In this document: piece after piece, positions 5,931 to 57,185 of the stretch
How the letters are laid out: each line of letters begins with the position of its first letter
How positions within the stretch are numbered: position 1 is the first letter of the stretch
Notes under the pieces: model-generated
Database searches by the model: none
What the model was told of the DNA's origin: nothing
What the model saw: only the letters and a program-made list of their open reading frames with translations
Source of the DNA: Candidatus Zhuqueibacterota bacterium
GTDB taxonomy: Bacteria > Zhuqueibacterota > QNDG01 > JABMRT01
Direction: 5' to 3'
DNA length: 64,000 nucleotides
Assembly (NCBI GenBank): GCA_013202295.1
Contig: JABMRT010000101.1
Location: 3,241-67,240 of the forward strand
Program-made: the position numbers and the translations under genes

Positions 5931-6000
5931 AATTTGGGAACCATGTAATAACCTTTTATCCCTGCACCACTGAATAAAAACCCTGAGGCGATCATGACTC

Positions 6001-42017: not shown

Positions 42018-42319
42018 GATGAACTCCTGGTTTGCCTTATTAATTCTGGAATTACAATTTACACAAACTGGATGGCAAAGGCCAGAAATATCAATTGCTC
42101 TTGACAAGAATTTACATTTTACATGTAGTGTAAGTAAAGATTCTTTAAAATGGGCAATCATATTAAATAATCTGCAGAAAATAAGGAAAAAATCATAGTC
42201 GGAAGTTACGGTATAAATGAATTCAAACTTCCAAGATAAAACATTATACAAAATTATTATTTTTCTAAGACTGAAGATGGAATAGCGATTTTAATAATGA
42301 TCAGCAATTAAAGAAATAT

Positions 42320-43576
42320 TTATCTTGATGGGGATATTTCATAAAAATGTTTTATATGCGTATAGAGAGCGGTTTCCTCATATCCCTCAACCTCAAGAAG
42401 CATTTCGAAATATGGGGGAACAGAACCATTGAGTGCTGTTATTTCCTCATACAATCGGTTGAGTGATGAATTTTCAATAATCTTTTTTATCACCTCCATC
42501 CGACCAATTTGGTGGAATGAGACGACAAAAAGACAAATATTGTCTTGGGGACCAGGTACCAAGGAAAATATAACATAATCTTTAGTATATTTATTTTCAT
42601 TTGATCCAGGATGGATAAATGTATAAGTAGTATCAATTTCATTGTTATAAAAACGAATTTGTCTCAATGAAGATTTTGGAATAGCTGCCGTATACTCTTT
42701 AAAATGTAAAGCTGGAAATATTTCATTCATATTATTTAAATTGTGAAAATGCCCAATATAAATGACATTGTAATTTTTTAAATCTTCCCACTCAATTTCG
42801 TCAGAGGTTTTCCAATAAAATGGCTTCGAATTTATAGTAAAAATCGGCTGAATTCTTGACAGATTCCATAAGCTCGACTTGGGAAGGATGTCCCAGTCAG
42901 ATTCTATATAATTTTCATTATCAAGAGCATATCGACCAATGAACGCTTCAAGATCATCTAAAGATCCAATTTTGTCATCTCTGACAAGCCGGAAACTATT
43001 TAATTCTTCTTGGTATTCATTAAATGCATATAAATTTCCAAATGTTAGAATGGTTGGGAACTCACTTGTCAGAAAATCGGACCATATGAAACTGGATTCA
43101 TTCACAGAGTTCTTAGAAACGATTGTCTTTATTATTGTTTTATTGGTATACCACAGATAAAATATCAGAATAAGAAAAATAAGGATGGTAAAAACAAAGA
43201 ATCGTATTAACAGTGTTGTTTTCCTCCCCTCATTTTCCTCCCTATTACTCTTTGAAGCTGATTCAAAAACGACATGATAGTGCCCCTTGGGAATCGTCAG
43301 TTGTATCTTGTCATTTTTACCTTCCTCTTTATAATACTCTTCTAATTTTTTCCTTAGCTTATAAATATGTACACGAACCAAGGTGTCTTCGAATGGATCA
43401 AATGTATCATCTTTGTCCAATGCCTGAATTGCTATATCAATTTCATTAGGTAATTTCCCCTTCAAGGAACATTCAACCAAATAAGTAAGAATCTTTTTAT
43501 ATGTCTCACTTTTAGCAAACGATGGACTGAGTAATATACTCTTAAGTACACTTTGTTGTATATTTCTTTTAATCAT
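42320..43576 (-). CDS. ToxR/CadC-like membrane-anchored transcriptional regulator (N-terminal OmpR/PhoB-type winged helix, one TM, ~250-aa periplasmic domain); low-GC gene
   Basis: YKKILTYLVECSLKGKLPNEIDIAIQALDKDDTFDPFEDTLVRVHIYKLRKKLEEYY resembles trans_reg_C; TM LLIRFFVFTILIFLILIFYLWY. Confidence 0.6.
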   Translation of the reverse strand: MIKRNIQQSVLKSILLSPSFAKSETYKKILTYLVECSLKGKLPNEIDIAIQALDKDDTFDPFEDTLVRVHIYKLRKKLEEYYKEEGKNDKIQLTIPKGHYHVVFESASKSNREENEGRKTTLLIRFFVFTILIFLILIFYLWYTNKTIIKTIVSKNSVNESSFIWSDFLTSEFPTILTFGNLYAFNEYQEELNSFRLVRDDKIGSLDDLEAFIGRYALDNENYIESDWDILPKSSLWNLSRIQPIFTINSKPFYWKTSDEIEWEDLKNYNVIYIGHFHNLNNMNEIFPALHFKEYTAAIPKSSLRQIRFYNNEIDTTYTFIHPGSNENKYTKDYVIFSLVPGPQDNICLFVVSFHQIGRMEVIKKIIENSSLNRLYEEITALNGSVPPYFEMLLEVEGYEETALYTHIKHFYEISPSR

Positions 43577-44038
43577 TCGGTTTTAGTAAGCCTCTCATAT
43601 TGGGTATATATGGATTTTTAAATATATCATTGAATCACAATGATGTCAAGATATTATTGGATTATTATCCAAGTCCCAATAAGTGATTTCTGTTCACCTC
43701 TTACCATATCATTACAATTTTGCCAAATATTGATCATCTAATTCACTCACAAGTGGCATTATTTGATGAATTCTTAATAGAGTGAATTTCTTTATATATC
43801 AAATTTCAACGTCACTGGCAAACCGTTCACTGTACAATTCACAGTGTACTCTTTGCATTTATATAGTGTGTCCATTTGTCCTGATTTCCGGATATATAAT
43901 GCACAATAGGATCATACTTATTCAATTAAATAATCGGTGCTAATCATGATTAATTAACAATTAAGGCATGCTTCCAGCTTTAATGAAAATAACTGTTAAT
44001 AGATTTCGAGTGCAACAGAGTATTAATAGTTTAATTTC

Positions 44039-44090
44039 GTTCACCTACACATTCACGTGAACCTGAGGTGAATTCACATTGATTCACTTG
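44039..44090. promoter_or_regulatory. Cluster of TTCAC direct repeats and two perfect palindromes (TTCACGTGAA, GTGAATTCAC): candidate operator in divergent AT-rich intergenic region
   Basis: gTTCACctacacaTTCACgtgaacctgagGTGAATTCACattgaTTCAC; near-identical gTTCACtgtacaaTTCAC at 43825-43842. Confidence 0.35.
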
Positions 44091-44155
44091 ATTTTTATAC
44101 TATAAATCCTTATTAAGATACACGATTCTTACAATAAAATTAGTGAAAATTACTC

Positions 44156-44989
44156 ATGCATACAAAACGTATTGGGATAATTGTTCCTGAACTAAAACAC
44201 ACATTTTTTGCAGCTATTCTTGATGGTATTCAGGATGCAGCTTCCGAAGAAGGATTCATCATTTGTGTTGGACAATCCAAGGAAGATTATCGTCGGGAAA
44301 AGACTGAAATTGAATCATTGCTTTTATATGGCATAGATGGTTTGCTTGTTTCTGTTTCTCAAAACACGAAAAAAACAGATCATTTCCAACGCGTTCTGGA
44401 TGAATCAATACCTCTCGTATTCTTTGATCGGGTTTGCCAGAATCTGAACACGAGTTATGTGGTTGTGGATGATTTCGATGGAGCTTTCAAAGCGACTGAA
44501 CATCTGATATTATCTGGATATAAACAGATTGCTCATATCGGAGGCCCGCAATTTATTTCCAACATGAAAAATCGTTATAAGGGTTATCAAGCCGCACTCA
44601 AAAAATATGAATTCCCTTTTCAACAGGAACTTGTCGTATTTGGCAACCTGGATGAAGATTCTGGAACGATTGGAATGAAAACGCTTCTCAAACTCTCAAA
44701 AAATCCGGATGCTGTTTTTGCTGTGAACGATCCTGTTGCAATAGGTGCGCTATTTCAAATAAAAAAAGCCGGATTAAATATTCACGATGATATTGCACTG
44801 GTTGGTTTTAGTGATAATCCGATTGCCGCATTAATTGATCCCCCCTTGACTACTGTCGCTCAACCCCGGTATGAGATTGGTAGAATTGCTGCCAAAATGC
44901 TTATTGATCAAATAAATAATAATAGTATGAGTTCACCACCTATCGAAAGAGTTTTGAAAACTAAATTGATTATTCGACAATCGAGTTGA
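44156..44989 (+). CDS. LacI/GalR-family periplasmic-binding-fold (ligand-binding) domain protein lacking the N-terminal HTH
   Basis: IGIIVPELKHTFFAAILDGIQDAAS...GIDGLLVSVSQ...DDIALVGFSDNPIAALIDPPLTTVAQP typical LacI sugar-binding core; in-frame stop 12 nt upstream of ATG, no HTH in any frame upstream. Confidence 0.65.
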   Translation: MHTKRIGIIVPELKHTFFAAILDGIQDAASEEGFIICVGQSKEDYRREKTEIESLLLYGIDGLLVSVSQNTKKTDHFQRVLDESIPLVFFDRVCQNLNTSYVVVDDFDGAFKATEHLILSGYKQIAHIGGPQFISNMKNRYKGYQAALKKYEFPFQQELVVFGNLDEDSGTIGMKTLLKLSKNPDAVFAVNDPVAIGALFQIKKAGLNIHDDIALVGFSDNPIAALIDPPLTTVAQPRYEIGRIAAKMLIDQINNNSMSSPPIERVLKTKLIIRQSS

Positions 44990-45187
44990 CTTATGAATAA
45001 TATATGGAGGTATTATCATGTTCTTTTATTGCAGAGATCCATAGAGCGCATTAGATTAAGTTAATTTAATCAAATTTATTCTCAAACAAGTAGATTGATT
45101 ATCTGTTGTATGAAATGGATGGAATTGTGAATACCCAATAATGATAAGGACAAATGTCATATTAAAACCATTCAAGGAGAGAAGAGG

Positions 45188-46693
45188 ATGAACACAACAA
45201 ATATACATAAAATTGTCGCGGTTCTATCAACTCTTTTATTAATTGTTTTTTTACCATTATACCTGTCGGCCCAAGTACTTATTGATATTGAAAATCCAAG
45301 TTTTGAACTGCCTGGCGATGCAAAACACACCAATTTTGATGATGTGCCCGGCTGGAGCACAGACAGCACATGTACAGATTCCGGTGTAGAGGAAAGCGAC
45401 TCTGCGACTGATGGCGCATGGGCTGGATTTATGATGAGTGGCGATCCGTCAGTCTGGCAATTAACAGACCATGTGATAGCAGCAGGAGAATTCATTGAGT
45501 TGCATGTTGATGTATGGGTTACCTGGATTGCCGAGGGCGTAACCATTGGATTGTACTATGATAATGCCGGTGAACGTGTAGAGCTCAACTCCACTGAAAT
45601 CGCTGTGACATCTGATATGACAGGATATTCTGTTGGTTTTTACGCTGATGATACACCTGCGGCGATCGGTAATACTGTGGGTATTGAGTTACAGAATTCA
45701 ACAGCAAGCGCTAGTACCTGGGTGGGTATGGATAATGTGCGTTTATATAATATGATCGCTCTGGACATTGTAATGGTTGAAAAAGTGGATGCGCCGGTTG
45801 TCATTGATGGTGTAATTGATGAAGTCTGGGACAACATTCTCGGCAATATCGTGAGAAATGTTGTTGTCAATACTATCGACGACCCACTTGATAACGAGGG
45901 TCGATGGAAAGCATTATATGACAATGATTATCTATATTTGGCATTTACAGTGACCGATGATGAACTGAATGATGACAGTGATGGCGTTAACGAACATGAT
46001 GACGGACTCGACATTGTTTTAGATACGGATAATGAAGATGAAACCTCTCCCGTTCCGGAAGATATGGATGATTTTGTATTGACAGCTGAATATTCATCCA
46101 CGGGTGATTGTGCTGTGAGCGGTGAAAAATGGTCTTTTGCTACACTGGATGTGGAGGGTATAGAAGCGAAATGCATGGACACTTCCGAAGGATATGATAT
46201 GGAAGTGGCCATTCCCCTAGAAAATCTGGATCTCTATGGCGATGAGTTGATTGGATTTGGAATTCGAATCAATGATGATGATGACGGAGATGATCGGGAT
46301 TCACAAATTGCCTGGTTCATGACTGATGCAGGTAATTGGAATAATCCATCAGCTCTGGCGGATCTTGAGTTTGTTGTTCCAACAGGAGTTAAAGAATCGC
46401 CAGCTATTGCCAGGGGATTTCAATTGAATCAGAATTATCCAAATCCATTTAATCCTCGTACAACGATCGATTATGAATTAAATATAAGTGGAATGGTGAC
46501 AGTGGAGATCTATAACGTACTTGGTCAATCCGTTAAAATATTAGTAAATCAGCATTTGGAAGCAGGATTTTATCAAACGAATTGGGATGCTACGGATAAA
46601 TTTGGCCAGAAAGTCAATAGCGGAGTCTATTTCTGTAAATTGACGACTCCAAATAAATTCTCTCTGGTTAAAAAAATGGTACTGCTCAAGTAG
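45188..46693 (+). CDS. Secreted carbohydrate-binding-module protein (CBM4_9-like + CBM9-like) with T9SS sorting domain
   Basis: Signal peptide; VVIDGVIDEVWDN...DNDYLYLAFTVTDDEL; C-term LNQNYPNPFNPRTTIDYELNISGMVTVEIYNVLGQSV. Confidence 0.65.
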   Translation: MNTTNIHKIVAVLSTLLLIVFLPLYLSAQVLIDIENPSFELPGDAKHTNFDDVPGWSTDSTCTDSGVEESDSATDGAWAGFMMSGDPSVWQLTDHVIAAGEFIELHVDVWVTWIAEGVTIGLYYDNAGERVELNSTEIAVTSDMTGYSVGFYADDTPAAIGNTVGIELQNSTASASTWVGMDNVRLYNMIALDIVMVEKVDAPVVIDGVIDEVWDNILGNIVRNVVVNTIDDPLDNEGRWKALYDNDYLYLAFTVTDDELNDDSDGVNEHDDGLDIVLDTDNEDETSPVPEDMDDFVLTAEYSSTGDCAVSGEKWSFATLDVEGIEAKCMDTSEGYDMEVAIPLENLDLYGDELIGFGIRINDDDDGDDRDSQIAWFMTDAGNWNNPSALADLEFVVPTGVKESPAIARGFQLNQNYPNPFNPRTTIDYELNISGMVTVEIYNVLGQSVKILVNQHLEAGFYQTNWDATDKFGQKVNSGVYFCKLTTPNKFSLVKKMVLLK

Positions 46694-46782
46694 AATTTAT
46701 CAGTATCCATTGTTCTCTAGTATTAGAGAAGCATTTGTGTCCAAAAATAAAGCCCCATACTCCTCTCTTGTTGGTATGGTCC

Positions 46783-46840
46783 AGTACCGGATGGAATGAC
46801 ATTTTAATCTCTCAATCTCTCTCTCATTCCATCCGGTACT
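46783..46840 (+). other. Long perfect inverted repeat (17-bp stem, 24-nt loop) in intergenic region; possible terminator/regulatory RNA structure
   Basis: agtaccggatggaatga...tcattccatccggtact. Confidence 0.4.
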
Positions 46841-46954
46841 CATTAATTCAGCCATGTGCTGAGCTTAGGATATTAAATCATATGGAGGATTACTATGATA
46901 TGATGATTCTTGTCTGTTCACTAACTTTGATCAATAAACAAATGGAGGTGTACC

Positions 46955-48412
46955 ATGAAGCAGGTTAGTATTTTAATTCCTTTGGCATGTTTACTTTTTG
47001 CGGTTGCTTTAACCGCTCAAATACCGGGAGAACTGCCAATCACAAATCCCGGTTTTGAAGCCGGTGATGCAAGCGGCTGGAATATGTGGCCGGGTGACGA
47101 TCCCAAAGTCAGCATTGTGACTGACATGGTATCAGAAGGCGTAAACGCAGCAAAAATATCCGGTGGCTCAGGAGCGGTTTACAAGATGGTATCCGGTGAA
47201 GTTGATATTGTTGTTGGTACATTTTATTGCATTGTAGCCGATGTTCTGATTCCGTCCGCCGATCCCCTACAGGAGGGACAAAGTGTGTACCTTGCGGGTA
47301 AAGCGGAAGGTTCGGCCACCGAATGGTTTGAGTCTCCAAAGGTCATCACCTCTGCTGATGATGCGGACACCTGGTATCGATTGTCTGTCGGTCTGACCTA
47401 TCCGGCGGATGCGATCGGACTCAACGCTGAATTCAAATGGACCGGGACCGGATCCGACGATCCCGGATGTGTTTATGTGGACAATGTCAAGGTCATTCGC
47501 ATGGAACCTATGCCGGATATAATCAATTTGGGATTTGAGGAACCTGAAGATTCCCTCTTCACCGGGGACATCGGCTGGTGGACCTGGTCCTATGGTCCTG
47601 TATCCCCTCCGGCAGGTGAAGAGGCCTGGTTTGAAGAAGGGATCAGCCATGATGACGGCGAAAGGGCGCTTGCCATAAGCGCGACGGATTGGTATTCATT
47701 TTATGATTTCTACTGGTGGGGCGGGTACTATAGCTGGACCGGGCAAACACCCTATCCTGAGGGTTACATTAATGGCGGTGATAATTTTTACATGAGCGGC
47801 TGGGTCATGACTCCTGCGACAGACCCGCTCGATGGCGTGGTTGATGTCGCACTTGAACTGACTTTTAAAGGTCCTGGCGGTAATCTGTCAAATATGGGGT
47901 ATGAGGAAGGTAGAGTATGGTCTGAAAACACACTCACTGAAAACTCGACCAGTGATGAATGGCATTTCCTGGAAGCGTTCATCACATGTCCTGAATTGGC
48001 TCCGGAAGATACATGTGATCGAATCGATTTTAATTTTGTGCTCCGACAATACGGCGAGGCTTGGGGTATTGCATTTGCCGATGATGTCTTCATTGCAAGA
48101 GGTGTCTCAGCACCGAATGATGTCAAAGATGAGCCTGGTCGCATTCCAACTGGATTGTCTTTGTCTCAAAACTATCCAAATCCGTTTAATCCGGCAACAA
48201 ACATCTCCTATTCTATTGACCGCACCCAGTATGTCAATGTAACGGTCTATGATATCTTGGGTAAAGAAATCGCTGTATTGCAGGATGGAGTCCAGAATAT
48301 GGGGCAGCACAATGTTACGTTTGACGCCTCGGATCTGTCCAGCGGGATTTATATTTATCGGCTGAAAACGGAAAATCAAACAGTAAACAAACGAATGGTG
48401 TTGATGCAGTAA
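46955..48412 (+). CDS. Secreted CBM4_9-like domain protein with T9SS sorting domain
   Basis: Signal peptide; GFEAGDASGWNMWPG; C-term LSQNYPNPFNPATNISYSIDRTQYVNVTVYDILGKEI. Confidence 0.65.
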   Translation: MKQVSILIPLACLLFAVALTAQIPGELPITNPGFEAGDASGWNMWPGDDPKVSIVTDMVSEGVNAAKISGGSGAVYKMVSGEVDIVVGTFYCIVADVLIPSADPLQEGQSVYLAGKAEGSATEWFESPKVITSADDADTWYRLSVGLTYPADAIGLNAEFKWTGTGSDDPGCVYVDNVKVIRMEPMPDIINLGFEEPEDSLFTGDIGWWTWSYGPVSPPAGEEAWFEEGISHDDGERALAISATDWYSFYDFYWWGGYYSWTGQTPYPEGYINGGDNFYMSGWVMTPATDPLDGVVDVALELTFKGPGGNLSNMGYEEGRVWSENTLTENSTSDEWHFLEAFITCPELAPEDTCDRIDFNFVLRQYGEAWGIAFADDVFIARGVSAPNDVKDEPGRIPTGLSLSQNYPNPFNPATNISYSIDRTQYVNVTVYDILGKEIAVLQDGVQNMGQHNVTFDASDLSSGIYIYRLKTENQTVNKRMVLMQ

Positions 48413-48552
48413 ATCTATTTTTACGGATTATGTTCAGTGACATACAGCAATCCGAACACGACTGATAACCATCTTCCTACCACAGGGGCAGGCGACTTGT
48501 ACCTCATAGTTAAGTCGTCTGCCTAATATAAATTGGGAGATTTGATAAGAAA

Positions 48553-50100
48553 ATGAGCAAGAAAATGAAATTTCAGATCACTACGATACTTTTATTGACT
48601 CTTTGTGTCACTTTGATAATATCATGTGCCAACAAAGATGCCATTGCAAATCCTGGAACGAACTCAAATAACATAAAAATCTATTATATTGACGGAGATT
48701 CCGGCCATGATGACAATGACGGTCTGTCACCGGAATCAGCCTGGAAAAGTCTGGACATGGTCAATGGCCTGGATCTGAAGCCCGGCTGGCAGATTCTCCT
48801 CAAAACAGGGACTATATACAATGGCAGGCTGGTACCAAAAGGATCCGGAGCGGAGGGGCATCCTATCATCATCGATAAGTACGGTGAAGGGGAAAAACCG
48901 CGAATCGATGCCTGGGGCAAACATCCTGAAACGCTTTTACTCAGCAATATCGAGTATTATGAAATCAGCAATCTGGAAATTACCAACCATGGTGGAACAC
49001 GGGCAGCGGGACGCAAAGGTGTTCATGTCACGGTTCAGGACATGGGTGTGGCCCGGCATATTCACCTGAAAAATCTGTATGTGCATGATGTGAATGGCAG
49101 CAATGTCAAGGATGAGGGTGGAGGATATGGCATTCACTGGAGCTGCTCGGGTGACAATGCAAGATTCGATGATCTTCTGATCGCGAATTGCCATTTGGTT
49201 CGGACTGACCGAAATGGGATTACAGGATGGGCGACGGCCTATAGCCCCGGTGGGGATAACTGGAATCCGAGCACAAATGTGGTCATCCGTAATAACCTTC
49301 TGGAAAATATTGGTGGAGACGGGATTGTCCCAATCGGCACGGATGGGTGTCTGGTAGAATACAATACATTGCAGGGCGGCCGTATGCGCGCAGAAGATTA
49401 TGCAGCGGGTATTTGGCCCTGGGGTTGCACGAATACAGTCATTCAGTACAATGAAGTCTCCGGCATGAAAGGAACCAAGGACGGTCAGAGTTTTGATTGT
49501 GATTACGAATGCAGCGGTACGATCATTCAGTATAACTACAGTCATGATAATGATGGCGGATTCCTCCTGGTATGTGGTCCGGCACGGAGTGATTATGGGT
49601 GCCGGGACTCTATCATCCGGTACAATATCAGCCAGAATGATGGCAGCGATTCGAGAATTTTTCATATCAGCGGCGGCAGCGTGAGCAATACACGAATTTA
49701 TAATAACACGATCTATTCTAATCTTGTTAATACACTCATCAAAATGGATAACTGGGAGGGTTGGCCTGAAAACACCTATTTTTATAACAATATTTTTTAT
49801 ATCCCAGGCAGAGCACGTTATTCATGGGGTCAGGCAACCGGAACGGTTTTTAAAAACAATGTGTTTTTTGGAAATCATACCCGACCACCTGATGATGTTG
49901 ATGGAATCACAGAAGATCCTTTGTTAGTCAATCCGGGGAGTGGTTATGATGGTTTTGACACCTTGGATGGATATAAATTGAAAGATGAATCTCCATGCAT
50001 CCGTAGCGGTAAAATAATTTCCGATAATGGCAGGCTGGATTTCTGGGGAAATCCTGTCCCTTCGGATGAGAAGCCGACAATTGGGGCTCATCAGAAATAA
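48553..50100 (+). CDS. Right-handed parallel beta-helix repeat lipoprotein (polysaccharide lyase/hydrolase-like)
   Basis: Lipobox LIISC; repeated beta-helix rungs (NLLENIGGDGI, IIQYNYSHDNDGG, IIRYNISQNDGS, RIYNNTIYSN). Confidence 0.6.
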   Translation: MSKKMKFQITTILLLTLCVTLIISCANKDAIANPGTNSNNIKIYYIDGDSGHDDNDGLSPESAWKSLDMVNGLDLKPGWQILLKTGTIYNGRLVPKGSGAEGHPIIIDKYGEGEKPRIDAWGKHPETLLLSNIEYYEISNLEITNHGGTRAAGRKGVHVTVQDMGVARHIHLKNLYVHDVNGSNVKDEGGGYGIHWSCSGDNARFDDLLIANCHLVRTDRNGITGWATAYSPGGDNWNPSTNVVIRNNLLENIGGDGIVPIGTDGCLVEYNTLQGGRMRAEDYAAGIWPWGCTNTVIQYNEVSGMKGTKDGQSFDCDYECSGTIIQYNYSHDNDGGFLLVCGPARSDYGCRDSIIRYNISQNDGSDSRIFHISGGSVSNTRIYNNTIYSNLVNTLIKMDNWEGWPENTYFYNNIFYIPGRARYSWGQATGTVFKNNVFFGNHTRPPDDVDGITEDPLLVNPGSGYDGFDTLDGYKLKDESPCIRSGKIISDNGRLDFWGNPVPSDEKPTIGAHQK

Positions 50101-50369
50101 ACAGAATACAATAACTCGAAAAACATCGAGATTCAATGAGCGTAAAGTGTTGGACAAGCCGTTACCATGCAGTCCGACGTGACAGGAGATTATTTTCGGG
50201 GGACATATAACTCGAAGTAATTGATATTATAGATAGAGCATCAAGTTGTTTTTTCAGAATATACGTAAATAACCGAAAAGAAAGAATGGATTACACAGAT
50301 ATAGACAGAGATAAACCGATGAGTTGTTATCGTCGGATTTGCTGCATAACGAAATCCAATAAGTTCTCC

Positions 50370-51902
50370 ATGATTTCATTGGTAAGATTTACTTATTGGA
50401 TTGCTTTGGTACTCATTTCAATAATGTTTCATACTTCCTGCAAGAAAAAAAATCCCGTAATACTTGATAATGAAGTAGCAGTCGTGATCCCTATAAAGCC
50501 TCATGGAATTCCTCAATCGACAAATTATACGGTTTGGGTGAATGATGACACCGTTTTTACAGGCCAAGCGGGTAATGAATCTCATAAAACCTATTCCTTC
50601 TGCACATTCGACTTTAGCGGAAGTGTTACTGTTCGCGTGAATTCGGAAATCTCTATCCGAACGATTGATATTCTACCTACTTCAAAAGAAATTAGTTATA
50701 CAATACTGGATAGTAAAACTGTGGAATTCACACTTCAGCGGCCGGAAATGATAACTTTGAAGTTGAATGACAGTAATAACCATACACTTCATTTTTTAAC
50801 AAGCCATCCGGAAACTGATAGGCCGGATCCGGAAAATACAAACGTACTCTATTATGCCGGACCCGGGGAATATGACGTGGGTATACTGGAATTAGCAAGC
50901 AACCAAACCTTGTATATCGAAGCCGGTGCCAAGTTGAATGGCATGGTTCTGATAAAAGATGCACAAAATGTAAAAGTTAAGGGAAGAGGGATGATCGACG
51001 GAACATACAATGAGTTCATAGGGAATCATCCTGAAGGTGACGCGCCCTGGAGACTGGTCTACATGGTCCGTTCGCAAAATATAGTGATTGAGGGCATTAC
51101 GCTATATAATAGTCGCAGCTGGACCATCCACCCCTATTCATGTAATAATTTATGGATTAACAATATCCGGATTCTCAATTGGGAATATGGATCTGATGGA
51201 ACAGATATATCTGCCTGTCAGGAAGTAAAGATCACCGATTCCTTTTACAGGACCAATGATGATCCGATCGCCATAAAAGCATTGAGTTTCGCTGAGAATG
51301 CCTTTTATCCCAATCCAATGATACAGAATATGGATGTGAAGAACATCCTTGTGGAGGGCTGTACCATATGGAATATGTCCTGGGGGAATGTATTTGAAAT
51401 CGGCTACGAACTTAGATGCAATCGGGTCAGTGACATCACTTTCAGGAATTGCGATGCGATCAGGCAGGGCGGCCGCGGTGCCGTATTCAGCATTCACAAC
51501 GCGGATGTCGCTACTGTGGAAAACGTACTTTATGAAGATATTCGAGTCGAAAATGCCGAGGCAGGAATGATTGGCTGCAAGTTGTTTGACCTGGCCATTT
51601 TTTATTCTCTGTTCAGTTATGATTCGGATTGGGGAGATATCAAGCCCAATGAACATTGGGATAATTTGCTGCCTGAACGGGGTATTCCAATCTACAGGGG
51701 AAAAATCAGCAATATAATTTATCGCAACATACAGGTAATGGATGGTAATTTCCCCTACTCAATATTTCATGGTTACGATCAGTTTCATACTATTGAGAGT
51801 GTACTGTTTGAAAATATTACGATTGGGAGCACACAAATTGAAAATAAAGATGAACTGAAACTGGAAATAAATGAGTATGTTGAAAATGTTCAATTCAATT
51901 AG
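50370..51902 (+). CDS. Pectin-lyase-fold glycoside hydrolase, GH28-like, lipoprotein
   Basis: GSDGTDI and RTNDDPIAIKA resemble GH28 NTDG / G(D/H)DCIAIK blocks; probable start at internal Met (lipobox FHTSC). Confidence 0.5.
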   Translation: MISLVRFTYWIALVLISIMFHTSCKKKNPVILDNEVAVVIPIKPHGIPQSTNYTVWVNDDTVFTGQAGNESHKTYSFCTFDFSGSVTVRVNSEISIRTIDILPTSKEISYTILDSKTVEFTLQRPEMITLKLNDSNNHTLHFLTSHPETDRPDPENTNVLYYAGPGEYDVGILELASNQTLYIEAGAKLNGMVLIKDAQNVKVKGRGMIDGTYNEFIGNHPEGDAPWRLVYMVRSQNIVIEGITLYNSRSWTIHPYSCNNLWINNIRILNWEYGSDGTDISACQEVKITDSFYRTNDDPIAIKALSFAENAFYPNPMIQNMDVKNILVEGCTIWNMSWGNVFEIGYELRCNRVSDITFRNCDAIRQGGRGAVFSIHNADVATVENVLYEDIRVENAEAGMIGCKLFDLAIFYSLFSYDSDWGDIKPNEHWDNLLPERGIPIYRGKISNIIYRNIQVMDGNFPYSIFHGYDQFHTIESVLFENITIGSTQIENKDELKLEINEYVENVQFN

Positions 51903-51958
51903 GAGAGAAAAAATAAATGATGTTCTCAACTGTGCTGTAATAATCGAAAGGTACTGAC

Positions 51959-53368
51959 ATGAATGACAAATGCATCAAAAGAGTTTTACTTATGGGTCTG
52001 ATAATTACACTTTTAATGGCTTCCGTGTTGGCTGGAGCCACAATGCCACCCGATCATCCCAACTTTCAGTATACTGGAAGAATCGATTTTTCGTCCCCGG
52101 ACGCCCCTATGCTATACTGGCCTGGCACGTCCATTAAAGCCAATTTTGAGGGAACTTCGCTCAGTGTTTTATTGAATGACCAAAATGGACAATCCTATTA
52201 TAATGTGTTTATCGATGAGGATTATGAGAACCCTTATATTATAGAATGCGGCGCAGGAAACCAGAGTTATATCATTTCGTCCACACTTGCAGATACAATA
52301 CATCCTCTCCTCATTTTTCGTCGTACTGAAGCTTCCACAGGTCCAACCGAATTCTTAGGGATTGAAATTGATGAAGGGAAAACACTGCTTGAACCCCCTG
52401 AACGACCTGAACACCGAATCAAATTTTATGGGAATTCCATTACCTGCGGTATGGGCAATGAAGCGCCTGATAGCGGTTCTGACGATATTATGGAAGAGGA
52501 GAATAATTTTCTGGCATACGGTGCCATTGCATCGCGTCTATTGGATGCAGAGTATATGTGCATTGCAAAAAGTGGAATCGGAATCATGATCAGTTGGTTT
52601 AACATGATTATGCCCGAATACTATTATCGTCTGGATCCTGATGATTCGGAAAGTTACTGGGATTTCAGTCTGTATGTACCGGATGTCGTCGTGATTAATC
52701 TTTTCCAGAATGACAGTTGGTTAATTAACAATTTAAATCCCATTCCAAATTCTATGGAAATTATTAATGCATATGTCAACTTTGTACGACAAATCCGTAC
52801 CGCTCATCCGACAGCCTATATCGTATGCTCTTTGGGCAGCATGGATGCCACGAGACAAGGATCGCCCTGGCCGGGATATATTGAAGACGCCGTAGAACAC
52901 ATGCAAACTGAAGATGATGATGCAAATATTGATGTTTTCTTTTTCCCATTTGAGAATTGGTATAAACATCCACGCGTGCGCCATCATTTACAAATGGGCG
53001 AAGACCTCGCCAATTTTATTGGGGAAAGTACGGGGTGGATTGACGTTTCGGTTGATGGACTCCATTTAAAAACCGATTCACAACCACTATTCTGTCTGGA
53101 ACAAAATTATCCAAATCCGTTTAATGCTTCAACACAAATAACCTTTGAAATTCCACAATCGGGACAAGTCAAATTAAATGTATATAATGCATTGGGGCAC
53201 AGAATCATTTGCCTTGTGAACGAGAATCTTCAATCCGGATTTCATGCAACCACATGGAATGCTCGAGATGCAATGGGAAAAGATGTTTCAAGTGGGATAT
53301 ACTTTTATTCGCTGACATATGGTCAGCAGAAGAATATCACGAATAGTAAAATGCTGTTAATGCGATAA
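51959..53368 (+). CDS. SGNH/GDSL hydrolase (CE2-like carbohydrate esterase: N-terminal beta-sandwich + SGNH) with T9SS sorting domain
   Basis: KFYGNSITCGMGNEAP (block I GNSIT); C-term LEQNYPNPFNASTQITFEIPQSGQVKLNVYNALGHRI. Confidence 0.65.
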   Translation: MNDKCIKRVLLMGLIITLLMASVLAGATMPPDHPNFQYTGRIDFSSPDAPMLYWPGTSIKANFEGTSLSVLLNDQNGQSYYNVFIDEDYENPYIIECGAGNQSYIISSTLADTIHPLLIFRRTEASTGPTEFLGIEIDEGKTLLEPPERPEHRIKFYGNSITCGMGNEAPDSGSDDIMEEENNFLAYGAIASRLLDAEYMCIAKSGIGIMISWFNMIMPEYYYRLDPDDSESYWDFSLYVPDVVVINLFQNDSWLINNLNPIPNSMEIINAYVNFVRQIRTAHPTAYIVCSLGSMDATRQGSPWPGYIEDAVEHMQTEDDDANIDVFFFPFENWYKHPRVRHHLQMGEDLANFIGESTGWIDVSVDGLHLKTDSQPLFCLEQNYPNPFNASTQITFEIPQSGQVKLNVYNALGHRIICLVNENLQSGFHATTWNARDAMGKDVSSGIYFYSLTYGQQKNITNSKMLLMR

Positions 53369-53376
53369 ATAATGAA

Positions 53377-54915
53377 ATGAAAGCGTCCATTTTTCTATTA
53401 GCTAAAATTAAAACACTGTGGAATAAAACCGTCAATTCTTTAAGAGCAACCTCATTGAAACGGATTTTGTTTTTTTGTATTGCGGTTCTGTTACCCTTTC
53501 TCTTTCTGTGCATATTTGAAATCATTCTTCAAGGAATCCAGTATGGTGGCGATCTGTCCCTCTTTGTGCCTGCTCCACTGCCGTTCGAGAATTATCTCAA
53601 AGTCAATCCCAATGTGGGTAAACGATTTTTCGGACGTCAATCCACTCTTCCTGTGCCATCGAATGATGTTTTCCTTCAGCAAAAGCCAGAAAACGGGTAC
53701 CGTATCTTCGTAATGGGCGGATCTACAGCGGTTGGATTTCCATACGGTAATCTACTCATGTTTTCACGAATTCTGCATCGAAGGCTGCAGGATACTTTTC
53801 CGGAAAAACGGATTGAGGTGATGAACACAGCTCTTACGGCTGTAAACTCATGGACGCTCCTCGATTTTCTGGATGAAATTCTCAATGCGGATCCAGACCT
53901 GATTTTAATTTATGCCGGGCACAACGAATATTATGGTGCCCTGGGTGTGAATTCACAGGAGTCTATTGGCCGTTCCCGCCTTCTCATCCGGATGCATTTA
54001 TATGCCAATCGGTTCAGGATCGTCCGGTTCGTCAGAGACCGATTGCGATGGATCAACGGCTTATTTTCTACATCTCCCCCCTTGGAGGGGACTCTGATGC
54101 AGCGGATCGTTCGTGAGAAAGTGATTCCATATCAGAGTCCAATTTATCATGCTGGAATTGAACAGGCAGGAAAAAATTTTAATTTGATACTAAAACGATT
54201 CCATGCAGCTAGGTTGCCGGTAATGGTAGGGGAACTTGTTTCCAATGTGAGGGATAATCCACCTCTCGACGGTGTCGAAGTAAAAGATTCCACGGATGCA
54301 GAGAGAATGTATCACGCTGCGCGAATTCATGAATCTGAAGACCAATTTCACAAGGCTCGCCTTTTTTACACCCTTGCGAAGGATTATGATTCAATCCGGT
54401 TCCGAGCACCAACTACTGTGAATGATACTATCCGGAATCTCGCCGAACGCTATGGTGCTGTGTTAATCCCCCTTCAGAAACTATTTATGGCCCATTCACC
54501 CCATGGACTGATAGGGGACAATCTCATGTGCGATCATTTACATCCAAATATCGATGGATATTTTTTAATGGCTGATGCTTTTTATGAGTCGATGAAAACA
54601 CATTGTTTAATTAAAACGAACTGGGACTCATGTGTGATGTCTGCTGCATGGTATCGTGAAAACTGGCCCATTTCTGATTTGGATCATACAATAGCGGACC
54701 TCATCCTGAAGAATCTGAAAAGTGGCTGGCCATTTCAGTCCATTCAAAACCAAAAATTCTTTTTCCAACAATTTGTACCCCGAAATCCTATTGAGTCTCT
54801 GGCAATGTGCGTCCTTCAAGACAGTATTTCAGTGGGTGAGGCACACTTTTTACTTGCAAAACAGTTTGAATCAAAAAAGGATTTCCTGGCTGCAAAAAAG
54901 AGTATGATGTGCTGA
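53377..54915 (+). CDS. Membrane-anchored SGNH-hydrolase-like protein with TPR-like C-terminus (C-terminus continues in another frame to ~55082: frameshift at A6 run)
   Basis: N-terminal TM; YRIFVMGGSTAVGFPYG, LILIYAGHNEY, DHLHPNIDGYF (block V DxxH); downstream frame encodes ...YDVLTHLVFIEAYHYLWRAEAFVRRSQNKEALEMLEASLACEM... Confidence 0.6.
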   Translation: MKASIFLLAKIKTLWNKTVNSLRATSLKRILFFCIAVLLPFLFLCIFEIILQGIQYGGDLSLFVPAPLPFENYLKVNPNVGKRFFGRQSTLPVPSNDVFLQQKPENGYRIFVMGGSTAVGFPYGNLLMFSRILHRRLQDTFPEKRIEVMNTALTAVNSWTLLDFLDEILNADPDLILIYAGHNEYYGALGVNSQESIGRSRLLIRMHLYANRFRIVRFVRDRLRWINGLFSTSPPLEGTLMQRIVREKVIPYQSPIYHAGIEQAGKNFNLILKRFHAARLPVMVGELVSNVRDNPPLDGVEVKDSTDAERMYHAARIHESEDQFHKARLFYTLAKDYDSIRFRAPTTVNDTIRNLAERYGAVLIPLQKLFMAHSPHGLIGDNLMCDHLHPNIDGYFLMADAFYESMKTHCLIKTNWDSCVMSAAWYRENWPISDLDHTIADLILKNLKSGWPFQSIQNQKFFFQQFVPRNPIESLAMCVLQDSISVGEAHFLLAKQFESKKDFLAAKKSMMC

Positions 54916-55117
54916 CGCATTTGGTGTTCATTGAAGCGTATCACTATCTGTGGCGGGCAGAGGCTTTTGTCAGACGTAGTCAGAACAAAGAGGCATTGGA
55001 AATGCTTGAAGCCAGTTTGGCTTGTGAGATGATTCCCAGAGCCAAAAAACTTCAGTATCGACTGAAACTAGAGGTGAATTGAAATCACTGGATTTATTAG
55101 GCAAGGAGAAACGGTAA

Positions 55118-56914
55118 ATGTCATATTATAATCAAAATATTTCCAAAGATGTTAATCTATCCATCGAGTGGATTCTAATTCTCATTTGTATTTCTTGTTT
55201 TGCCTTTGCTTCAGCAGATCAGAATCAATTGTCAATAGAAGATGGCTGGAAAATGAAGAAAGGCGATAATGCGGATTGGATCAAGCCTGATTTTGATGAC
55301 AGTGGCTGGAAGCCCATTCAGGTCGGGAAAACCTGGGAAAACGCCGGATATAGTGAATATGATGGATATGCTTGGTACAGAATCAGATTTATTATTCCTA
55401 AAAGGGCATTTAAAGGATTAAAGCATGATTTCCTCAGCATATCACTTGGTTTCATTGATGATGTCGATGTAACCTATTTCAATGGAGAAGAAATCGGGAA
55501 ATCAGGTGCGTTCCCACCCGAATATGCCACAGCATATTATAATGAGCGGAAATATCGCATATTTAAATCTTTGATTCGTTGGGATCAAGAAAATGTTATT
55601 GCTGTCAGAATGTATGATGGTCATGGTGAAGGCGGTTTATATATGGGACCGTATATAATCAAAGTGCCTGGGATTGCTGAGATGCTAGATGTGAATTTCG
55701 ACCTCGAGAATTCGGACGGCATCTATCATTCACCTGATCTACTTCCTGTAACTCTAAGTATTCAGAATCATTCTGGTGAAAACAATCAAGTGATATATGA
55801 GTGCACACTCAAGAGTGACTGTGTAGATAAAGAGCTCATTTTTAATAGTAAAAAAAGAATTGTCCAAATTACAGGAGAAAATGAACTCACAGAAGTATAC
55901 AAATTCTATCCACCTAGTCCGGGATTTTATCGCATTGTCACAACTTTAAGTGACACAAATGGTAGTAAAATAACAAAGTCCATAATGTTAGGATATGATC
56001 CCGAAAAAATCAAAACAGAGATTACTCGTGAAGATAACTTTGAGGATTTCTGGAGAGAACGCAAACAGGAACTGGGACGCGTGGATCCTGCTTTTAAGAT
56101 GATCAGGAGCGATATGTCCACAGATGAAGTGGATGTCTATCTTGTTGAAATGCGCAGTTATGGGAATGTGCGTATCAGAGGGTGGTATACGGTTCCTAAA
56201 AATGATGGCCCTCATGCGGCCATTCTGAGTGTGCCTGGATACACTGGTACGATGTGGCCCTATGTGAACAGAACGAATGTGGCTACATTTGCCTTAAATC
56301 CACGCGGGCATGGCAACAGCAAGGATGACATTGATCCGAAAGGTTCAGAATATATGTTTCTGGGATTCGATCCTGAACATCCAGAGAAATATATTTATGC
56401 GGGTGCATATCTAGATTGCATTCGGGCTATTGATTTTCTTTTTTCTCGTCCGGAGATTGACAAATCACGCATCGGTGTAGAGGGTGGAAGTCAGGGGGGT
56501 GGTTTATCTTTCGCAACAGCCGCACTTGACCAGAGAATTATGTTCTGTGCCCCAGATATTCCCTGGCTAGGTGACTGGATCGGTTATTTCGAAGCAGCAA
56601 TATGGTCGGGTGAAAATTATGCAAAGTTAGCCGAAAGTTACCCCGGGCTTACACCGAGTGATATAAACCGCCTTCTGAGTTACTTCGATACAATGAATCT
56701 GGCCAATCGAATAAGATGTCCTGTGTTCATGTCTGTGGGACTCCAGGATGAAGTGTGTCCCCCCCGAAATGCATTTGCAACATATAACCAGGTCAGTTCC
56801 GATAAAGAATACCGTGTATATCCATTCTCCGGCCATGGATTGGGATCCGAGCATTACACTCTCAAGAACAAATGGATGGCAGAAAGACTTGGCGTTGAAG
56901 AAGTGGGACTCTAA
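55118..56914 (+). CDS. CE7 acetyl-xylan esterase/cephalosporin-C deacetylase family with N-terminal GH2-type sugar-binding (galactose-binding-like) domain
   Basis: GGSQGGGLSF (GxSQG), catalytic His context YPFSGHGLGSEH; N-term GWKMKKGDNADWIKPDFDDSGWKPIQVGKTWENAGYSEYDGYAWYRIRF. Confidence 0.75.
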   Translation: MSYYNQNISKDVNLSIEWILILICISCFAFASADQNQLSIEDGWKMKKGDNADWIKPDFDDSGWKPIQVGKTWENAGYSEYDGYAWYRIRFIIPKRAFKGLKHDFLSISLGFIDDVDVTYFNGEEIGKSGAFPPEYATAYYNERKYRIFKSLIRWDQENVIAVRMYDGHGEGGLYMGPYIIKVPGIAEMLDVNFDLENSDGIYHSPDLLPVTLSIQNHSGENNQVIYECTLKSDCVDKELIFNSKKRIVQITGENELTEVYKFYPPSPGFYRIVTTLSDTNGSKITKSIMLGYDPEKIKTEITREDNFEDFWRERKQELGRVDPAFKMIRSDMSTDEVDVYLVEMRSYGNVRIRGWYTVPKNDGPHAAILSVPGYTGTMWPYVNRTNVATFALNPRGHGNSKDDIDPKGSEYMFLGFDPEHPEKYIYAGAYLDCIRAIDFLFSRPEIDKSRIGVEGGSQGGGLSFATAALDQRIMFCAPDIPWLGDWIGYFEAAIWSGENYAKLAESYPGLTPSDINRLLSYFDTMNLANRIRCPVFMSVGLQDEVCPPRNAFATYNQVSSDKEYRVYPFSGHGLGSEHYTLKNKWMAERLGVEEVGL

Positions 56915-57185
56915 TTGATTTCCCTGTTAAAGCATATCATGCTATAAAGGGTGATGGAATAATGGATAATCCATTGATTTATTTTTTTACATTATGAAAC
57001 AAATTTACCATGCATTTAATCATTTTATTTATTATAATTCGATAGGATTATTTGTATTATAATCCGGGGAGAGGAAATATCTCCCCTGTTTATACTCGAC
57101 AATATAAAATCTAAAAACCTGTCTATCGGATGGTTATTTTGGCAGAATAGACAGAATTCAACCTGTTGAAGAGGCATTCATTGAT

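Follow-up and report, generated by a model that had tools for sequence, protein, structure and literature searches.

The locus described here raises the question of why a LacI-family sugar-binding protein without a DNA-binding domain is encoded back to back with a membrane-anchored regulator, and how the promoter between the two genes might be controlled. The pair lies in a stretch of 64,000 nucleotides (64 kb, hereafter the window) from a member of the candidate division KSB1. The regulator, the AT-rich spacer and the HTH-less LacI-family core that an earlier note had read from the letters of this DNA are all present (Table 1). Our preferred reading, to which we give somewhat less than an even chance when all of its steps are taken together, is that the two genes make up a conserved regulatory module in which the core serves as a co-sensor of the regulator. 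The conserved, co-inherited pair and its shared operator, which lie at the head of a gene cluster for breaking down plant polysaccharides, suggest a previously undescribed two-protein sugar switch.

Table 1. Features of the divergent locus and its surroundings, in window coordinates.
Feature	Position	Strand	Basis or remark
Membrane-anchored one-component regulator, 418 aa (P0121, annotated 'hypothetical protein', KSB1)	42320..43576	-	ORF
Periplasmic alpha/beta domain, aa about 160-418	42323..43099	-	
Single transmembrane helix, aa about 120-144, TTLLIRFFVFTILIFLILIFYLWYT	43145..43219	-	hydrophobic segment within modelled long helix 108-156
Cytoplasmic OmpR/PhoB-type winged-helix DNA-binding domain, aa 1-106	43259..43576	-	
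Divergent control region, 579 bp, AT-rich	43577..44155	.	GC 0.301
Candidate regulator-gene promoter, TTGACA-17-TGnTATATT	43621..43649	-	consensus match only
Distal GTTCAC-N7-TTCAC pair, overlapping hairpin CACTGT-N7-ACAGTG	43825..43842	+	present
Upstream auxiliary half-sites, GTTCAC-N7-TTCACGTGAAC	44039..44062	+	aligns with GTTAAC element of related loci
Core operator, two tandem 10-bp units GTGAATTCAC + ATTGATTCAC	44068..44087	+	alignment, PWM; about -56 to -37
Predicted core-gene promoter, -35 TTGATT (44088-44093), 17-bp spacer, -10 TATTAA (44111-44116)	44088..44116	+	inferred from conservation
In-frame TGA, 12 nt upstream of core ATG, closing the reading frame	44144..44146	+	
LacI/GalR-family effector core, HTH-less, 277 aa, cytoplasmic	44156..44989	+	Pfam, profile alignments, clade
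Downstream co-oriented genes	45188..59948	+	Pfam

A membrane-anchored regulator and an HTH-less LacI-family core

Structure prediction, homology and comparative genomics show the 418-aa product to have the predicted make-up of a membrane-anchored one-component transcription factor of the ToxR/CadC type, so that this assignment of the earlier note holds at the structural level. In the AF2 model (pLDDT 89.4), an N-terminal winged helix of the OmpR/PhoB type, with the recognition helix at aa 66-83 (EDTLVRVHIYKLRKKLEEYY) and the wing at aa 91-106, is followed by one transmembrane helix and then by a folded C-terminal domain of 260 aa, placed in the periplasm. The winged helix is assigned to the cytoplasmic side because it must reach the DNA. 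At the level of Pfam profiles, Trans_reg_C (PF00486) is matched with 17.4 bits (E 0.0047), below the gathering threshold of 26.2 bits, and only one of the 49 homologues (P0149) carries a precomputed Pfam family, again a weak PF00486. No further Pfam domain is present in the regulator, which has neither a receiver nor a kinase domain. Its dN/dS is 0.11 against L001. With the family profile, the periplasmic domain has 0 sequence matches in the PDB and no homology to the domains of ToxR, CadC, TcpP or VtrA, and its structural matches are confined to BcsB and accessory domains of glycoside hydrolases. This alpha/beta domain, which presumably senses a glycan-derived or envelope cue, is of a kind so far undescribed as a sensor domain.

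The related loci were gathered with an alignment of nine closer sequences. The regulator family comprises about 450 representative clusters; it is compact and uniform, and it adjoins CAZyme, T9SS or TonB genes. CAZyme genes accompany most of its members, with the same type of operator and without any LacI core. Since most members lack the core, the regulator appears to be autonomous and the core at most an accessory input, which leaves without support the suggestion that the orphan sugar-binding domain is the regulator's sole ligand sensor. The family would represent a novel type of regulator for polysaccharide-utilisation loci, found in KSB1, Calditrichota and Bacteroidota.

The product of the divergent gene contains a type I periplasmic-binding-protein-like effector core, as is readily apparent from its matches to Peripla_BP_1 (E 2.5e-33), Peripla_BP_3 (E 2e-31) and Peripla_BP_4 in Pfam, to CytR (198 bits) and RbsR (186 bits) as the best NCBIfam profiles, and to CelR (5ysz), CcpA and PurR in the PDB (E 1e-30 to 1e-36). 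The alignment to CytR, RbsR, PurR and CcpA begins at about their residue 58 and runs to the end, and the protein starts 3-6 residues ahead of the first beta-strand of the effector core. The LacI HTH (no PF00356 match) and the hinge helix are absent from the protein. A custom HTH HMM (--max, six frames) detected no HTH remnant in the window, and the paired loci were likewise free of an HTH in all frames; a frameshift or a hidden HTH upstream of the gene was rejected on the strength of this search. The claim of a LacI-type protein without a DNA-binding domain is thereby upheld, and the in-frame stop reported just before its ATG is confirmed as well. Lacking both HTH and hinge helix, the core alone cannot be a DNA-binding repressor. 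A role as the periplasmic sugar-binding protein of an ABC transporter was also considered and rejected: the N-terminus (MHTKRIGIIVPE) has neither a hydrophobic leader nor a signal peptide, a Pfam search of the neighbourhood revealed no ABC transporter genes, and RbsB and other periplasmic solute-binding-protein profiles reach 63 bits versus 198 bits for the LacI-family profiles.

A comparison of orthologous LacI proteins, called for by the earlier note, places all 17 HTH-less clusters in one clade with a shared N-terminal boundary and identities down to 53%, nested among HTH-bearing LacI proteins at 50-60% identity. The core is under strong purifying selection, with dN/dS of about 0.07 (pN/pS 0.144/0.712 against L001, and 0.086/0.457 for L017 against L050). 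The 17-cluster clade and the purifying selection argue that the core is not a truncation artefact. Homology and comparative genomics thus show a cytoplasmic LacI-family effector core, encoded by the first gene of the putative activated transcript, whose HTH and hinge were lost once, in an ancestor, and which purifying selection has since kept beside the regulator.

Co-inheritance of the two genes and its possible meaning

The core gene is divergent to a regulator gene in nine sequence-verified loci (the window, L001, L002, L009, L017, L028, L047, L048 and L050), and shared contigs or gene sizes suggest three more pairings. The metagenome-assembled genomes with the pair include, besides that of the window, GCA_016932575.1 and GCA_016930535.1. 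The one exception, L054, has PorV upstream of its HTH-less core in place of the regulator, and it keeps an operator-like TTCAC/GTGAA element and a -35/-10 pair. Thus, 9-12 of 13 HTH-less proteins have a regulator neighbour, versus none of the four nearest HTH-bearing relatives examined (P0015, P0018, P0020 and P0022). Furthermore, the neighbour-joining trees of the two proteins, drawn without support values, have the same deep split, which separates the window, L001, L002, L028 and L047 from L009, L017, L048 and L050. In the regulator tree, the unpaired L004, L035/L036 and L029-L034 are interspersed among the paired groups or placed between them. The same type of operator precedes a full-length LacI gene in L032 and an HTH-only LacI ORF in L036, and these two loci presumably show ancestral and alternative states. 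The earlier idea that the two proteins cooperate gains from the near-obligate synteny seen from the side of the core, from the congruence of the trees and from the absence of the regulator beside all four HTH-bearing sisters examined.

Among the possible roles of the core, that of a cytoplasmic sugar-binding co-sensor acting on the cytoplasmic domain of the regulator seems the likeliest. Being dimeric and ligand-switchable, it could promote or block dimerisation or DNA binding of the regulator, and an intracellular sugar input or feedback would be added to the periplasmic signal. The core may thus modulate the regulator physically. A more specific version, a 'split' transcription factor in which the core docks in trans on the winged helix of the membrane-anchored protein and periplasmic glycan and cytoplasmic sugar signals are integrated at one promoter, is in our view less likely than not. 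As for the ligand, the neighbouring genes in other paired loci make galactose or a galactoside possible: galactokinase is present in L001, L002, L047 and L050, GH2 in L002, and a GH27 alpha-galactosidase in L017. Unlike the four galactokinase-bearing loci, the 64-kb window contains no galactokinase.

Taking into account that most regulator homologues occur without a core, the adjacency could simply mark the core gene as a regulated target. On this alternative, which we regard as unlikely though by no means negligible, the regulator works on its own, and the core gene simply comes first among those it controls. The core itself would act elsewhere, most plausibly as a dominant-negative protein or anti-repressor that heterodimerises with a full-length LacI-family paralogue, or else as a cytoplasmic sugar-binding or buffering protein. 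The use of the same operator without a core in most loci, the core of L054 with no adjacent regulator and the similar T9SS/TonB clusters headed by HTH-bearing sister proteins in related organisms all agree with it. Only three clade-specific signature positions set the HTH-less cores apart from their HTH-bearing relatives, so that no obvious new interaction surface is seen and the dimer interface is probably still compatible with those relatives; CerN of the LuxR family is a precedent for an HTH-less antagonist (PMC11655674). However, neither the window nor any paired locus contains a full-length LacI gene or an HTH, and an autonomous regulator leaves unexplained both the exact coincidence of HTH loss with a winged-helix neighbour and the deepest split shared by the two trees.

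The divergent promoter and the base composition of the module

The core operator is the only block of the spacer that is conserved with L001, L002 and L028, and it comprises 14 invariant columns in the alignment of nine loci. A PWM built from the other loci gives this site a score of 22.9, the top match in 64 kb, where the null maximum is 13.9 +/- 2.4; the second-best match (15.4) lies within a coding region. The PWM scan gave no site above the shuffled-sequence maximum upstream of the other CAZyme genes of the window. The units recur with a strict period of 10 bp; the last one runs directly into a conserved TTGnnn hexamer, and a TAnnnW hexamer follows after 17 bp. The family unit is GTTAATTmAC, and the predicted operator consists of tandem nGTTnnTTmAC units abutting the -35 element. 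A TTG/TTA hexamer right after the last unit, together with TAnnnW 17 bp later, occurs in 8 of the 9 paired loci. Transcription of the core gene would start near 44123. A consensus scan offers an alternative core promoter, TTCACA-17-TATACT at 44073-44101. The candidate promoter of the regulator gene matches the consensus at 11/12 positions, has an extended -10 and lies 45 nt before the start codon.

The same motif accompanies regulator homologues that have no LacI core. With a PWM derived from the paired loci only, 11 of 23 core-less loci have their highest-scoring site, over all 3-13 kb of the locus, within the spacer upstream of the regulator, where 5% would be expected by chance (P about 3e-9). 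In L013, L018, L019, L015 and L004, none of which has a LacI gene, the 10-bp unit stands beside the regulator homologue in 2-4 head-to-tail copies, and these strong sites are directed toward the divergent CAZyme gene. This distribution implies that the motif belongs to the winged-helix protein, and phylogenetic footprinting argues strongly for the core operator as its predicted binding site. The regulator would bind the two units probably as a head-to-tail dimer or oligomer and, with the units abutting the -35 element, may activate the divergent promoter in a class II-like manner, as PhoB or TcpP does; it is the position of the site that points to activation rather than repression.

It is improbable that the TTCAC/GTGAA palindromes are instead operators of a trans-acting LacI-type or other dimeric repressor, with the winged helix binding elsewhere or nowhere. 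Two perfect palindromes, GTGAATTCAC and TTCACGTGAA, are indeed present, the L028 block is likewise a perfect 16-bp palindrome (AACGTGAATTCACGTT), and palindromy is usual in LacI-family operators. Such operators typically have a central CG step, however, whereas the centre here is AATT; the conserved part takes in the non-palindromic second unit ATTGATTCAC and the strict 10-bp period; head-to-tail units recur in the five LacI-less loci; and L032, with its full-length LacI, carries a separate classical palindrome of its own (AATGTGnnCGnGCACATT). The palindromes listed earlier as separate features are thus better described as variants of the 10-bp unit than as LacI-type operators. Both of the direct-repeat pairs with N7 spacing reported alongside them exist, but the functional cis-element appears to be the two 10-bp units instead. 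The proximal pair corresponds to the consensus TGTTAAC-N4-ACGTGAATTCAC of the related loci (alignment, with sequences compared by eye), and the distal pair, conserved in no related locus, was rejected as a functional element.

The cumulative GC skew reaches its minimum at the 579-bp spacer. A replication origin, which this minimum raised, was set aside: skew elsewhere in the window tracks gene orientation, the genes that were examined include neither dnaA nor dnaN, and the conserved spacer block recurs at orthologous promoters in many genomes. The spacer has no Rfam match at E<=1, and a micro-ORF (43782-43943, 53 aa) was rejected as a conserved gene since it is not conserved in related loci. 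Downstream, the co-oriented genes encode CBM9-T9SS, CBM4_9-T9SS, beta-helix, GH28, CE2-T9SS, GDSL and AXE1 proteins and a TonB-dependent receptor. They may be co-transcribed with the core gene; a scan of the window found no terminator-like site between 44989 and 45188. The regulator, the core and the operator-like repeats do form a conserved unit at the head of this plus-strand T9SS/CAZyme cluster, as had been described.

The sharp drop in GC relative to the flanks is real, and amounts to 12 points for the module in the window. In 8 of 9 loci, with host GC between 0.33 and 0.53, the module is 3-12 points poorer in GC than the flanking DNA, and the offset follows host GC from 0.27 to 0.54. Since the offset recurs across hosts of differing GC, low GC seems to be intrinsic to the module genes and lends no support to the horizontal acquisition that had been proposed. 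It is hardly credible that the core gene is a decaying LacI pseudogene of recent truncation, or a product of faulty assembly or annotation, within a recently acquired foreign island: although the core starts just past an in-frame stop in a low-GC segment, and although at least one 'HTH-less' database entry (P0022) owes that status to annotation, an intact HTH lying ahead of its called start, the depth of the clade and the low dN/dS refute a pseudogene, no HTH remnant occurs in any frame, the GC offset follows the hosts, and an identical core protein is found on 2 contigs in the database.

Significance and comparison with known systems

Literature searches on LacI proteins devoid of a DNA-binding domain, on ToxR-like regulators of polysaccharide-utilisation loci and on T9SS in KSB1 yielded nothing describing the regulator-core pair. 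To our knowledge, little is understood of how polysaccharide-degradation clusters are controlled beyond the well-studied systems of Bacteroides (HTCS, SusR, ECF sigma/anti-sigma). For KSB1 and Calditrichota, both uncultured, a defined regulator family with a predicted operator makes regulon prediction possible. The selectively maintained, monophyletic HTH-less LacI clade, co-inherited with a regulator, represents a natural experiment in the re-wiring of signalling modules. If the proteins interact, the 'co-component' principle of ToxR-like systems would be extended to a cytoplasmic partner, and a new two-input sugar sensor design would become available to synthetic biology, a field in which engineered LacI cores are already in wide use.

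The regulator resembles ToxR, TcpP, CadC, PsaE and VtrA, the membrane-bound one-component OmpR-type regulators termed 'ToxR-like receptors', which often have a co-component (ToxS, TcpH, LysP or VtrC). Its periplasmic domain, however, bears no recognisable resemblance to its counterparts in ToxR, CadC or VtrA; the co-components known so far reside in the periplasm or the membrane, whereas the candidate partner here is a cytoplasmic LacI-type core; and the targets are CAZyme/T9SS/TonB clusters of KSB1, Calditrichota and Bacteroidota rather than virulence or acid-stress genes. The core itself is a bona fide LacI/GalR effector-binding domain (as in CytR, RbsR, PurR, CcpA and CelR) and, unlike the LacI/GalR repressors, is entirely devoid of HTH and hinge helix.

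The logic proposed for the pair is that of AmiC-AmiR, from the amidase operon of Pseudomonas aeruginosa, and of NasS-NasT, in which a cytoplasmic sensor with the periplasmic-binding-protein fold and no nucleic-acid-binding domain detects a small molecule and, by way of a ligand-dependent complex, governs a regulator encoded by a different gene; the present pair is linked by synteny and co-phylogeny. AmiC is LivJ-like and the core is LacI-derived; the partner of AmiC is a soluble ANTAR RNA-binding antiterminator, whereas that of the core would be a membrane-anchored DNA-binding protein. A partnership between a membrane-tethered DNA-binding protein and a cytoplasmic co-sensor derived from LacI would, as far as we know, be undescribed so far. 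In Vibrio cholerae, the membrane-embedded ChiS binds DNA directly, switches on a polysaccharide-utilisation locus and is modulated by CBP, a protein with a solute-binding fold; yet ChiS, a hybrid histidine kinase, has a DNA-binding domain of another kind, and its chitin-binding protein CBP is periplasmic, unlike the core.

Finally, HTH-less antagonist paralogues such as CerN (LuxR family) and TrlR (TraR family) have kept the ligand-binding/dimerisation domain and lost the HTH (PMC11655674). The core is likewise a transcription-factor derivative that retains ligand-binding and dimerisation domain without the HTH. CerN and TrlR, however, poison a full-length paralogue, whereas the core, with no such paralogue nearby, has a conserved partner from an unrelated family.

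Layout of the locus and the HTH-less core

The window belongs to a bacterium of candidate division KSB1; the features of the module are collected in the table. The regulator is 100% identical to the NCBI entry 'hypothetical protein HQ585_08150', and the core to 'substrate-binding domain-containing protein [candidate division KSB1 bacterium]'. Upstream of the module, the minus strand carries GH12 and CBM9 cargo genes of type IX secretion (T9SS), and 3' of the core follows a plus-strand series: CBM9-T9SS, CBM4_9-T9SS, beta-helix, GH28, CE2-T9SS, GDSL, AXE1, a TonB-dependent receptor and a 1157-aa protein. The latter (59972-63445, plus strand), for which Pfam gives no match at E<=1e-4, is encoded directly 3' of the receptor (57186-59948), in the slot of the SusD-like partner in Bacteroidota loci. 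For the CBM9-T9SS ORF at 40854-42251(-), the listed start is TTG, and ~78 N-terminal residues precede the signal-peptide-like MMRFSTKFSNLILIVLLFITATVVFG; the real start is probably internal, near 42017, with a longer non-coding gap past the regulator stop.

Features of the module, with predicted elements of the core promoter
Feature	Position	Strand	Remarks
Regulator ORF, 418 aa	42320-43576	-	GC 0.325
Spacer, 579 bp	43577-44155		GC 0.301
Operator units (predicted)	44068-77, 44078-87	+	conserved block
-35 TTGATT (predicted)	44088-93	+	hexamer abutting last unit
-10 TATTAA (predicted)	44111-16	+	TAnnnW hexamer 17 bp past -35
Core ATG	44156	+	
Core ORF, 277 aa	44156-44989	+	GC 0.378

The core matches Peripla_BP_1, _3 and _4 in Pfam and nothing else. 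The NCBIfam CytR, RbsR, PurR, GalR and CcpA models cover it solely from profile position ~58-67 to the end, and alignment with the solved structures of CelR, CcpA, RbsR and PurR starts at their residue ~57-60. An HMM of the N-terminal 62 residues, built on 94 homologues with the HTH and run with all filters off on every open stretch in six frames, detects no HTH in any pair-carrying locus, the window included (best E there 9.9, at 1205-1288), while recovering it in control loci (E 1e-14 to 1e-35). The earlier note's description of a LacI-type protein devoid of a DNA-binding domain is thus confirmed, as is the in-frame stop before its ATG (TGA, 44144-44146); an HTH hidden upstream by a frame error, which it had considered, is not found.

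Of the 120 best homologues, the HTH is missing from 17 clusters (273-305 aa, 53-74% identical to the query). A neighbour-joining tree of the core region groups them in a single clade apart from ~100 HTH-bearing proteins, and all start a few residues ahead of the first core strand, IG(V/I)IVPE. The core is under strongly purifying selection, with pN/pS of 0.144/0.712 (dN/dS ~0.07) between the window and the related locus L001 and 0.086/0.457 between L017 and L050. The clade, the common start boundary and this selection rule out a mere truncation. Two database homologues proved to be annotation artefacts: P0066, rejected because the HTH model matches it, and P0022 (295 aa; L049:4815-5885(+)), listed without PF00356 but mis-started, since the open frame upstream encodes an intact LacI HTH (HMM E 3e-32). 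Some 'HTH-less' LacI entries in databases are therefore gene-calling artefacts.

Conservation and base composition of the pair

The pair is conserved. Core and regulator are divergently oriented in the window and in L001 (=L014), L002 (=L003, L005), L009 (=L043), L017, L028, L047, L048 and L050. Three more pairs (P0003/P0124, P0009/P0130 and P0011) are inferred from a shared contig or a divergent 425-aa Pfam-less neighbour. A lone HTH-less core without adjacent regulator occurs in L054:1-2162, where PorV (T9SS) precedes it by 139 bp in the same orientation; the short spacer retains a TTCAC/GTGAA element along with a -35/-10 pair ahead of the core start (AAATTCACGGTGAAATTCA-TTGACC-17-TATATT). 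Beside the nearest HTH-bearing relatives with available context, the regulator is absent in four of four (P0015, P0018, P0020, P0022). Core and regulator trees share a deep split, separating window/L001/L002/L028/L047 from L009/L017/L048/L050. The idea that the two genes work together, as in the non-canonical control unit proposed earlier, is strengthened by divergent pairing in nine loci and by this split; its horizontal acquisition is not supported.

In the same region of the regulator tree, L032 carries a full-length LacI gene at the divergent position, and L036 a 61-aa ORF, 5573-5770(-), consisting of the LacI HTH and hinge alone (MAATLKDVAEKSRVHLSTVSRVLN...ARALRLKE*; PF00356, E 8e-17). 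An ancestral regulator plausibly stood beside a full-length LacI gene, from which the HTH was then lost once. The 61-aa ORF is either what remains of a full-length LacI gene after disruption or an HTH standing by itself, reciprocal to the HTH-less core. It lies directly 3' of three TTAAC units and a TTGAAA -35, beside a regulator homologue, and the DNA past it is rich in repeats, with CACGAATTAT repeats and hairpins. The L032 spacer (L032:5459-6000) contains two palindromes of the classical LacI type, AATGTGTTCGAGCACATT and AATGTGCTCGTAAACATT, which differ from the regulator units.

The drop in GC is real against a whole-window GC of 0.452. Module GC lies below that of the flanks in eight of the nine loci, by 3-12 points, and, running from 0.27 to 0.54, tracks that of the host. 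This speaks against a recent arrival; the low GC is better explained by a bias inherent in an AT-rich control region and in a membrane protein rich in Lys, Asn and Ile. Cumulative GC skew (1-64000) has its minimum near 43000-44000, at the AT-rich spacer, where gene orientation changes from mostly minus to plus. Gene orientation, rather than a replication origin, is the most likely cause of this minimum; no dnaA/dnaN was seen among the window genes examined, and the spacer block is a promoter element common to orthologous loci.

Predicted operator and promoter

TTCAC/GTGAA occurs 12 times in the spacer versus 1.56 +/- 1.23 expected (~eight-fold), the top value among all sliding windows. The spacers of the nine paired loci are unalignable save one block, with consensus TGTTAAC-N4-ACGTGAATTCAC-GTTnATTCAC-TTGATT, whose 14 invariant columns correspond to window 44068-44089. 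It consists of 10-bp units, nGTTnnTT(C/A)AC, the final one abutting a TTGnnn/TTAnnn hexamer, with a TAnnnW hexamer 17 bp further on. A PWM derived from the other loci alone scores 22.9 bits at 44068-44087, the best site in 64 kb (null maximum 13.9 +/- 2.4); at the remaining CAZyme promoters of the window, no site exceeds the null. A second window copy of GTGAATTCAC (53947-53956) lies inside the GDSL esterase gene with no adjoining second unit and is probably due to chance.

The units recur in 2-4 head-to-tail copies of 10-bp period, by a -35-like hexamer, near core-less regulator homologues (L013, L018, L019, L007, L006, L015, L004, L036). Furthermore, a PWM from the paired loci alone places the locus-best site within the regulator-upstream spacer in 11 of 23 core-less loci (5% expected, P about 3e-9). 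Both observations argue that the motif belongs to the winged-helix protein, of which it is the predicted site. OmpR/PhoB-type activators and TcpP act through direct repeats in tandem, spaced by one turn of the helix and adjoining or overlapping the -35.

The two perfect palindromes of the earlier note are present in the sequence but are variants of the near-palindromic unit GTTAA|TTAAC, not separate features. Of its GTTCAC-N7-TTCAC pairs, 44039-44056 represents auxiliary upstream half-sites, whereas 43825-43842 is not conserved; a terminator-like hairpin overlapping the latter (CACTGT-ACAATTC-ACAGTG, 43828-43846, plus strand) is not conserved elsewhere either.

Other elements accompany some homologues. 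In the distant flavobacterial members L024-L027 (Flavicella, Labilibacter, Lutibacter, Tamlana; 21-24% identity), which adjoin GH2 or GH3 genes, the spacers upstream of position 6000 share TTAACGGTTAA-N5-8-CACCGT... and no TTCAC repeats, consistent with a diverged recognition specificity. In the L029 and L031 sub-clade, the regulator-upstream spacers share TGTTACAGG twice, then GACAT-N4-AGTGACGTCACTTG.

The membrane regulator and the proposed mechanism

A confident structure model from a 38-sequence alignment (pLDDT 89.4) agrees with the proposed winged-helix, one-TM, periplasmic layout: an N-domain with helices and a wing (aa 1-106), a single long helix (108-156) with hydrophobic aa 120-144 inside, and an alpha/beta domain (166-413). 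Trans_reg_C scores 17.4 bits, below the threshold of 26.2; Foldseek gives no match at E<0.01, and a PDB-sequence profile search with the family none. The regulator is ToxR/CadC-like, with a new external domain. Scanning this domain alone with HMMER against 1.84 billion representatives yields 446 clusters (225 at E<=1e-10), nearly all of 400-430 aa with the domain at the same position: a compact family of single architecture. Homologues occur in KSB1, Calditrichia and 'Cytophagia' MAGs and in cultured Flavobacteriia and Marinilabiliales.

The regulator family is autonomous: the majority of homologues have divergent carbohydrate genes and no LacI relative nearby, their neighbours including GH88, KduI, GHL6/GH66-like, GH62, GH2, GH3, T9SS cargo and TonB receptor genes. 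The core is consequently not the sole sensor of the regulator, as the earlier proposal of an orphan ligand-sensing domain would have it.

Collectively, a ToxR-like membrane regulator with a defined predicted operator at the promoter of a putative operon led by a functional HTH-less LacI core is shown or strongly inferred. The regulator would activate the core promoter; the core, co-inherited with it and made from the regulated promoter, would be a dimeric sugar-switchable module returning a cytoplasmic sugar signal to the regulator. Several paired loci contain genes for galactokinase, GH2 and GH27, a hint that the ligand may be galactose or a galactoside, although the window itself has no galK. 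The main rival is that the core is merely a regulated gene working elsewhere, for instance by pairing with a full-length LacI paralogue in a dominant-negative manner. That regulator and core form a split, doubly sensing transcription factor is a tentative hypothesis, to which we give clearly less than an even chance.

Full-text literature searches returned nothing that describes the pair, HTH-less LacI clades or the control of polysaccharide loci by ToxR-like regulators. The comparative case for a new regulatory module with its predicted operator is solid. The core is the effector domain of the LacI family but lacks the HTH that defines it. The regulator would work in the manner of ToxR, TcpP and CadC, whose architecture it shares, whereas its sensor domain is not homologous to theirs. 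The closest functional analogy is AmiC-AmiR, where a sensor of binding-protein fold without DNA-binding domain controls a separate regulator, with CBP-ChiS as the periplasmic counterpart.
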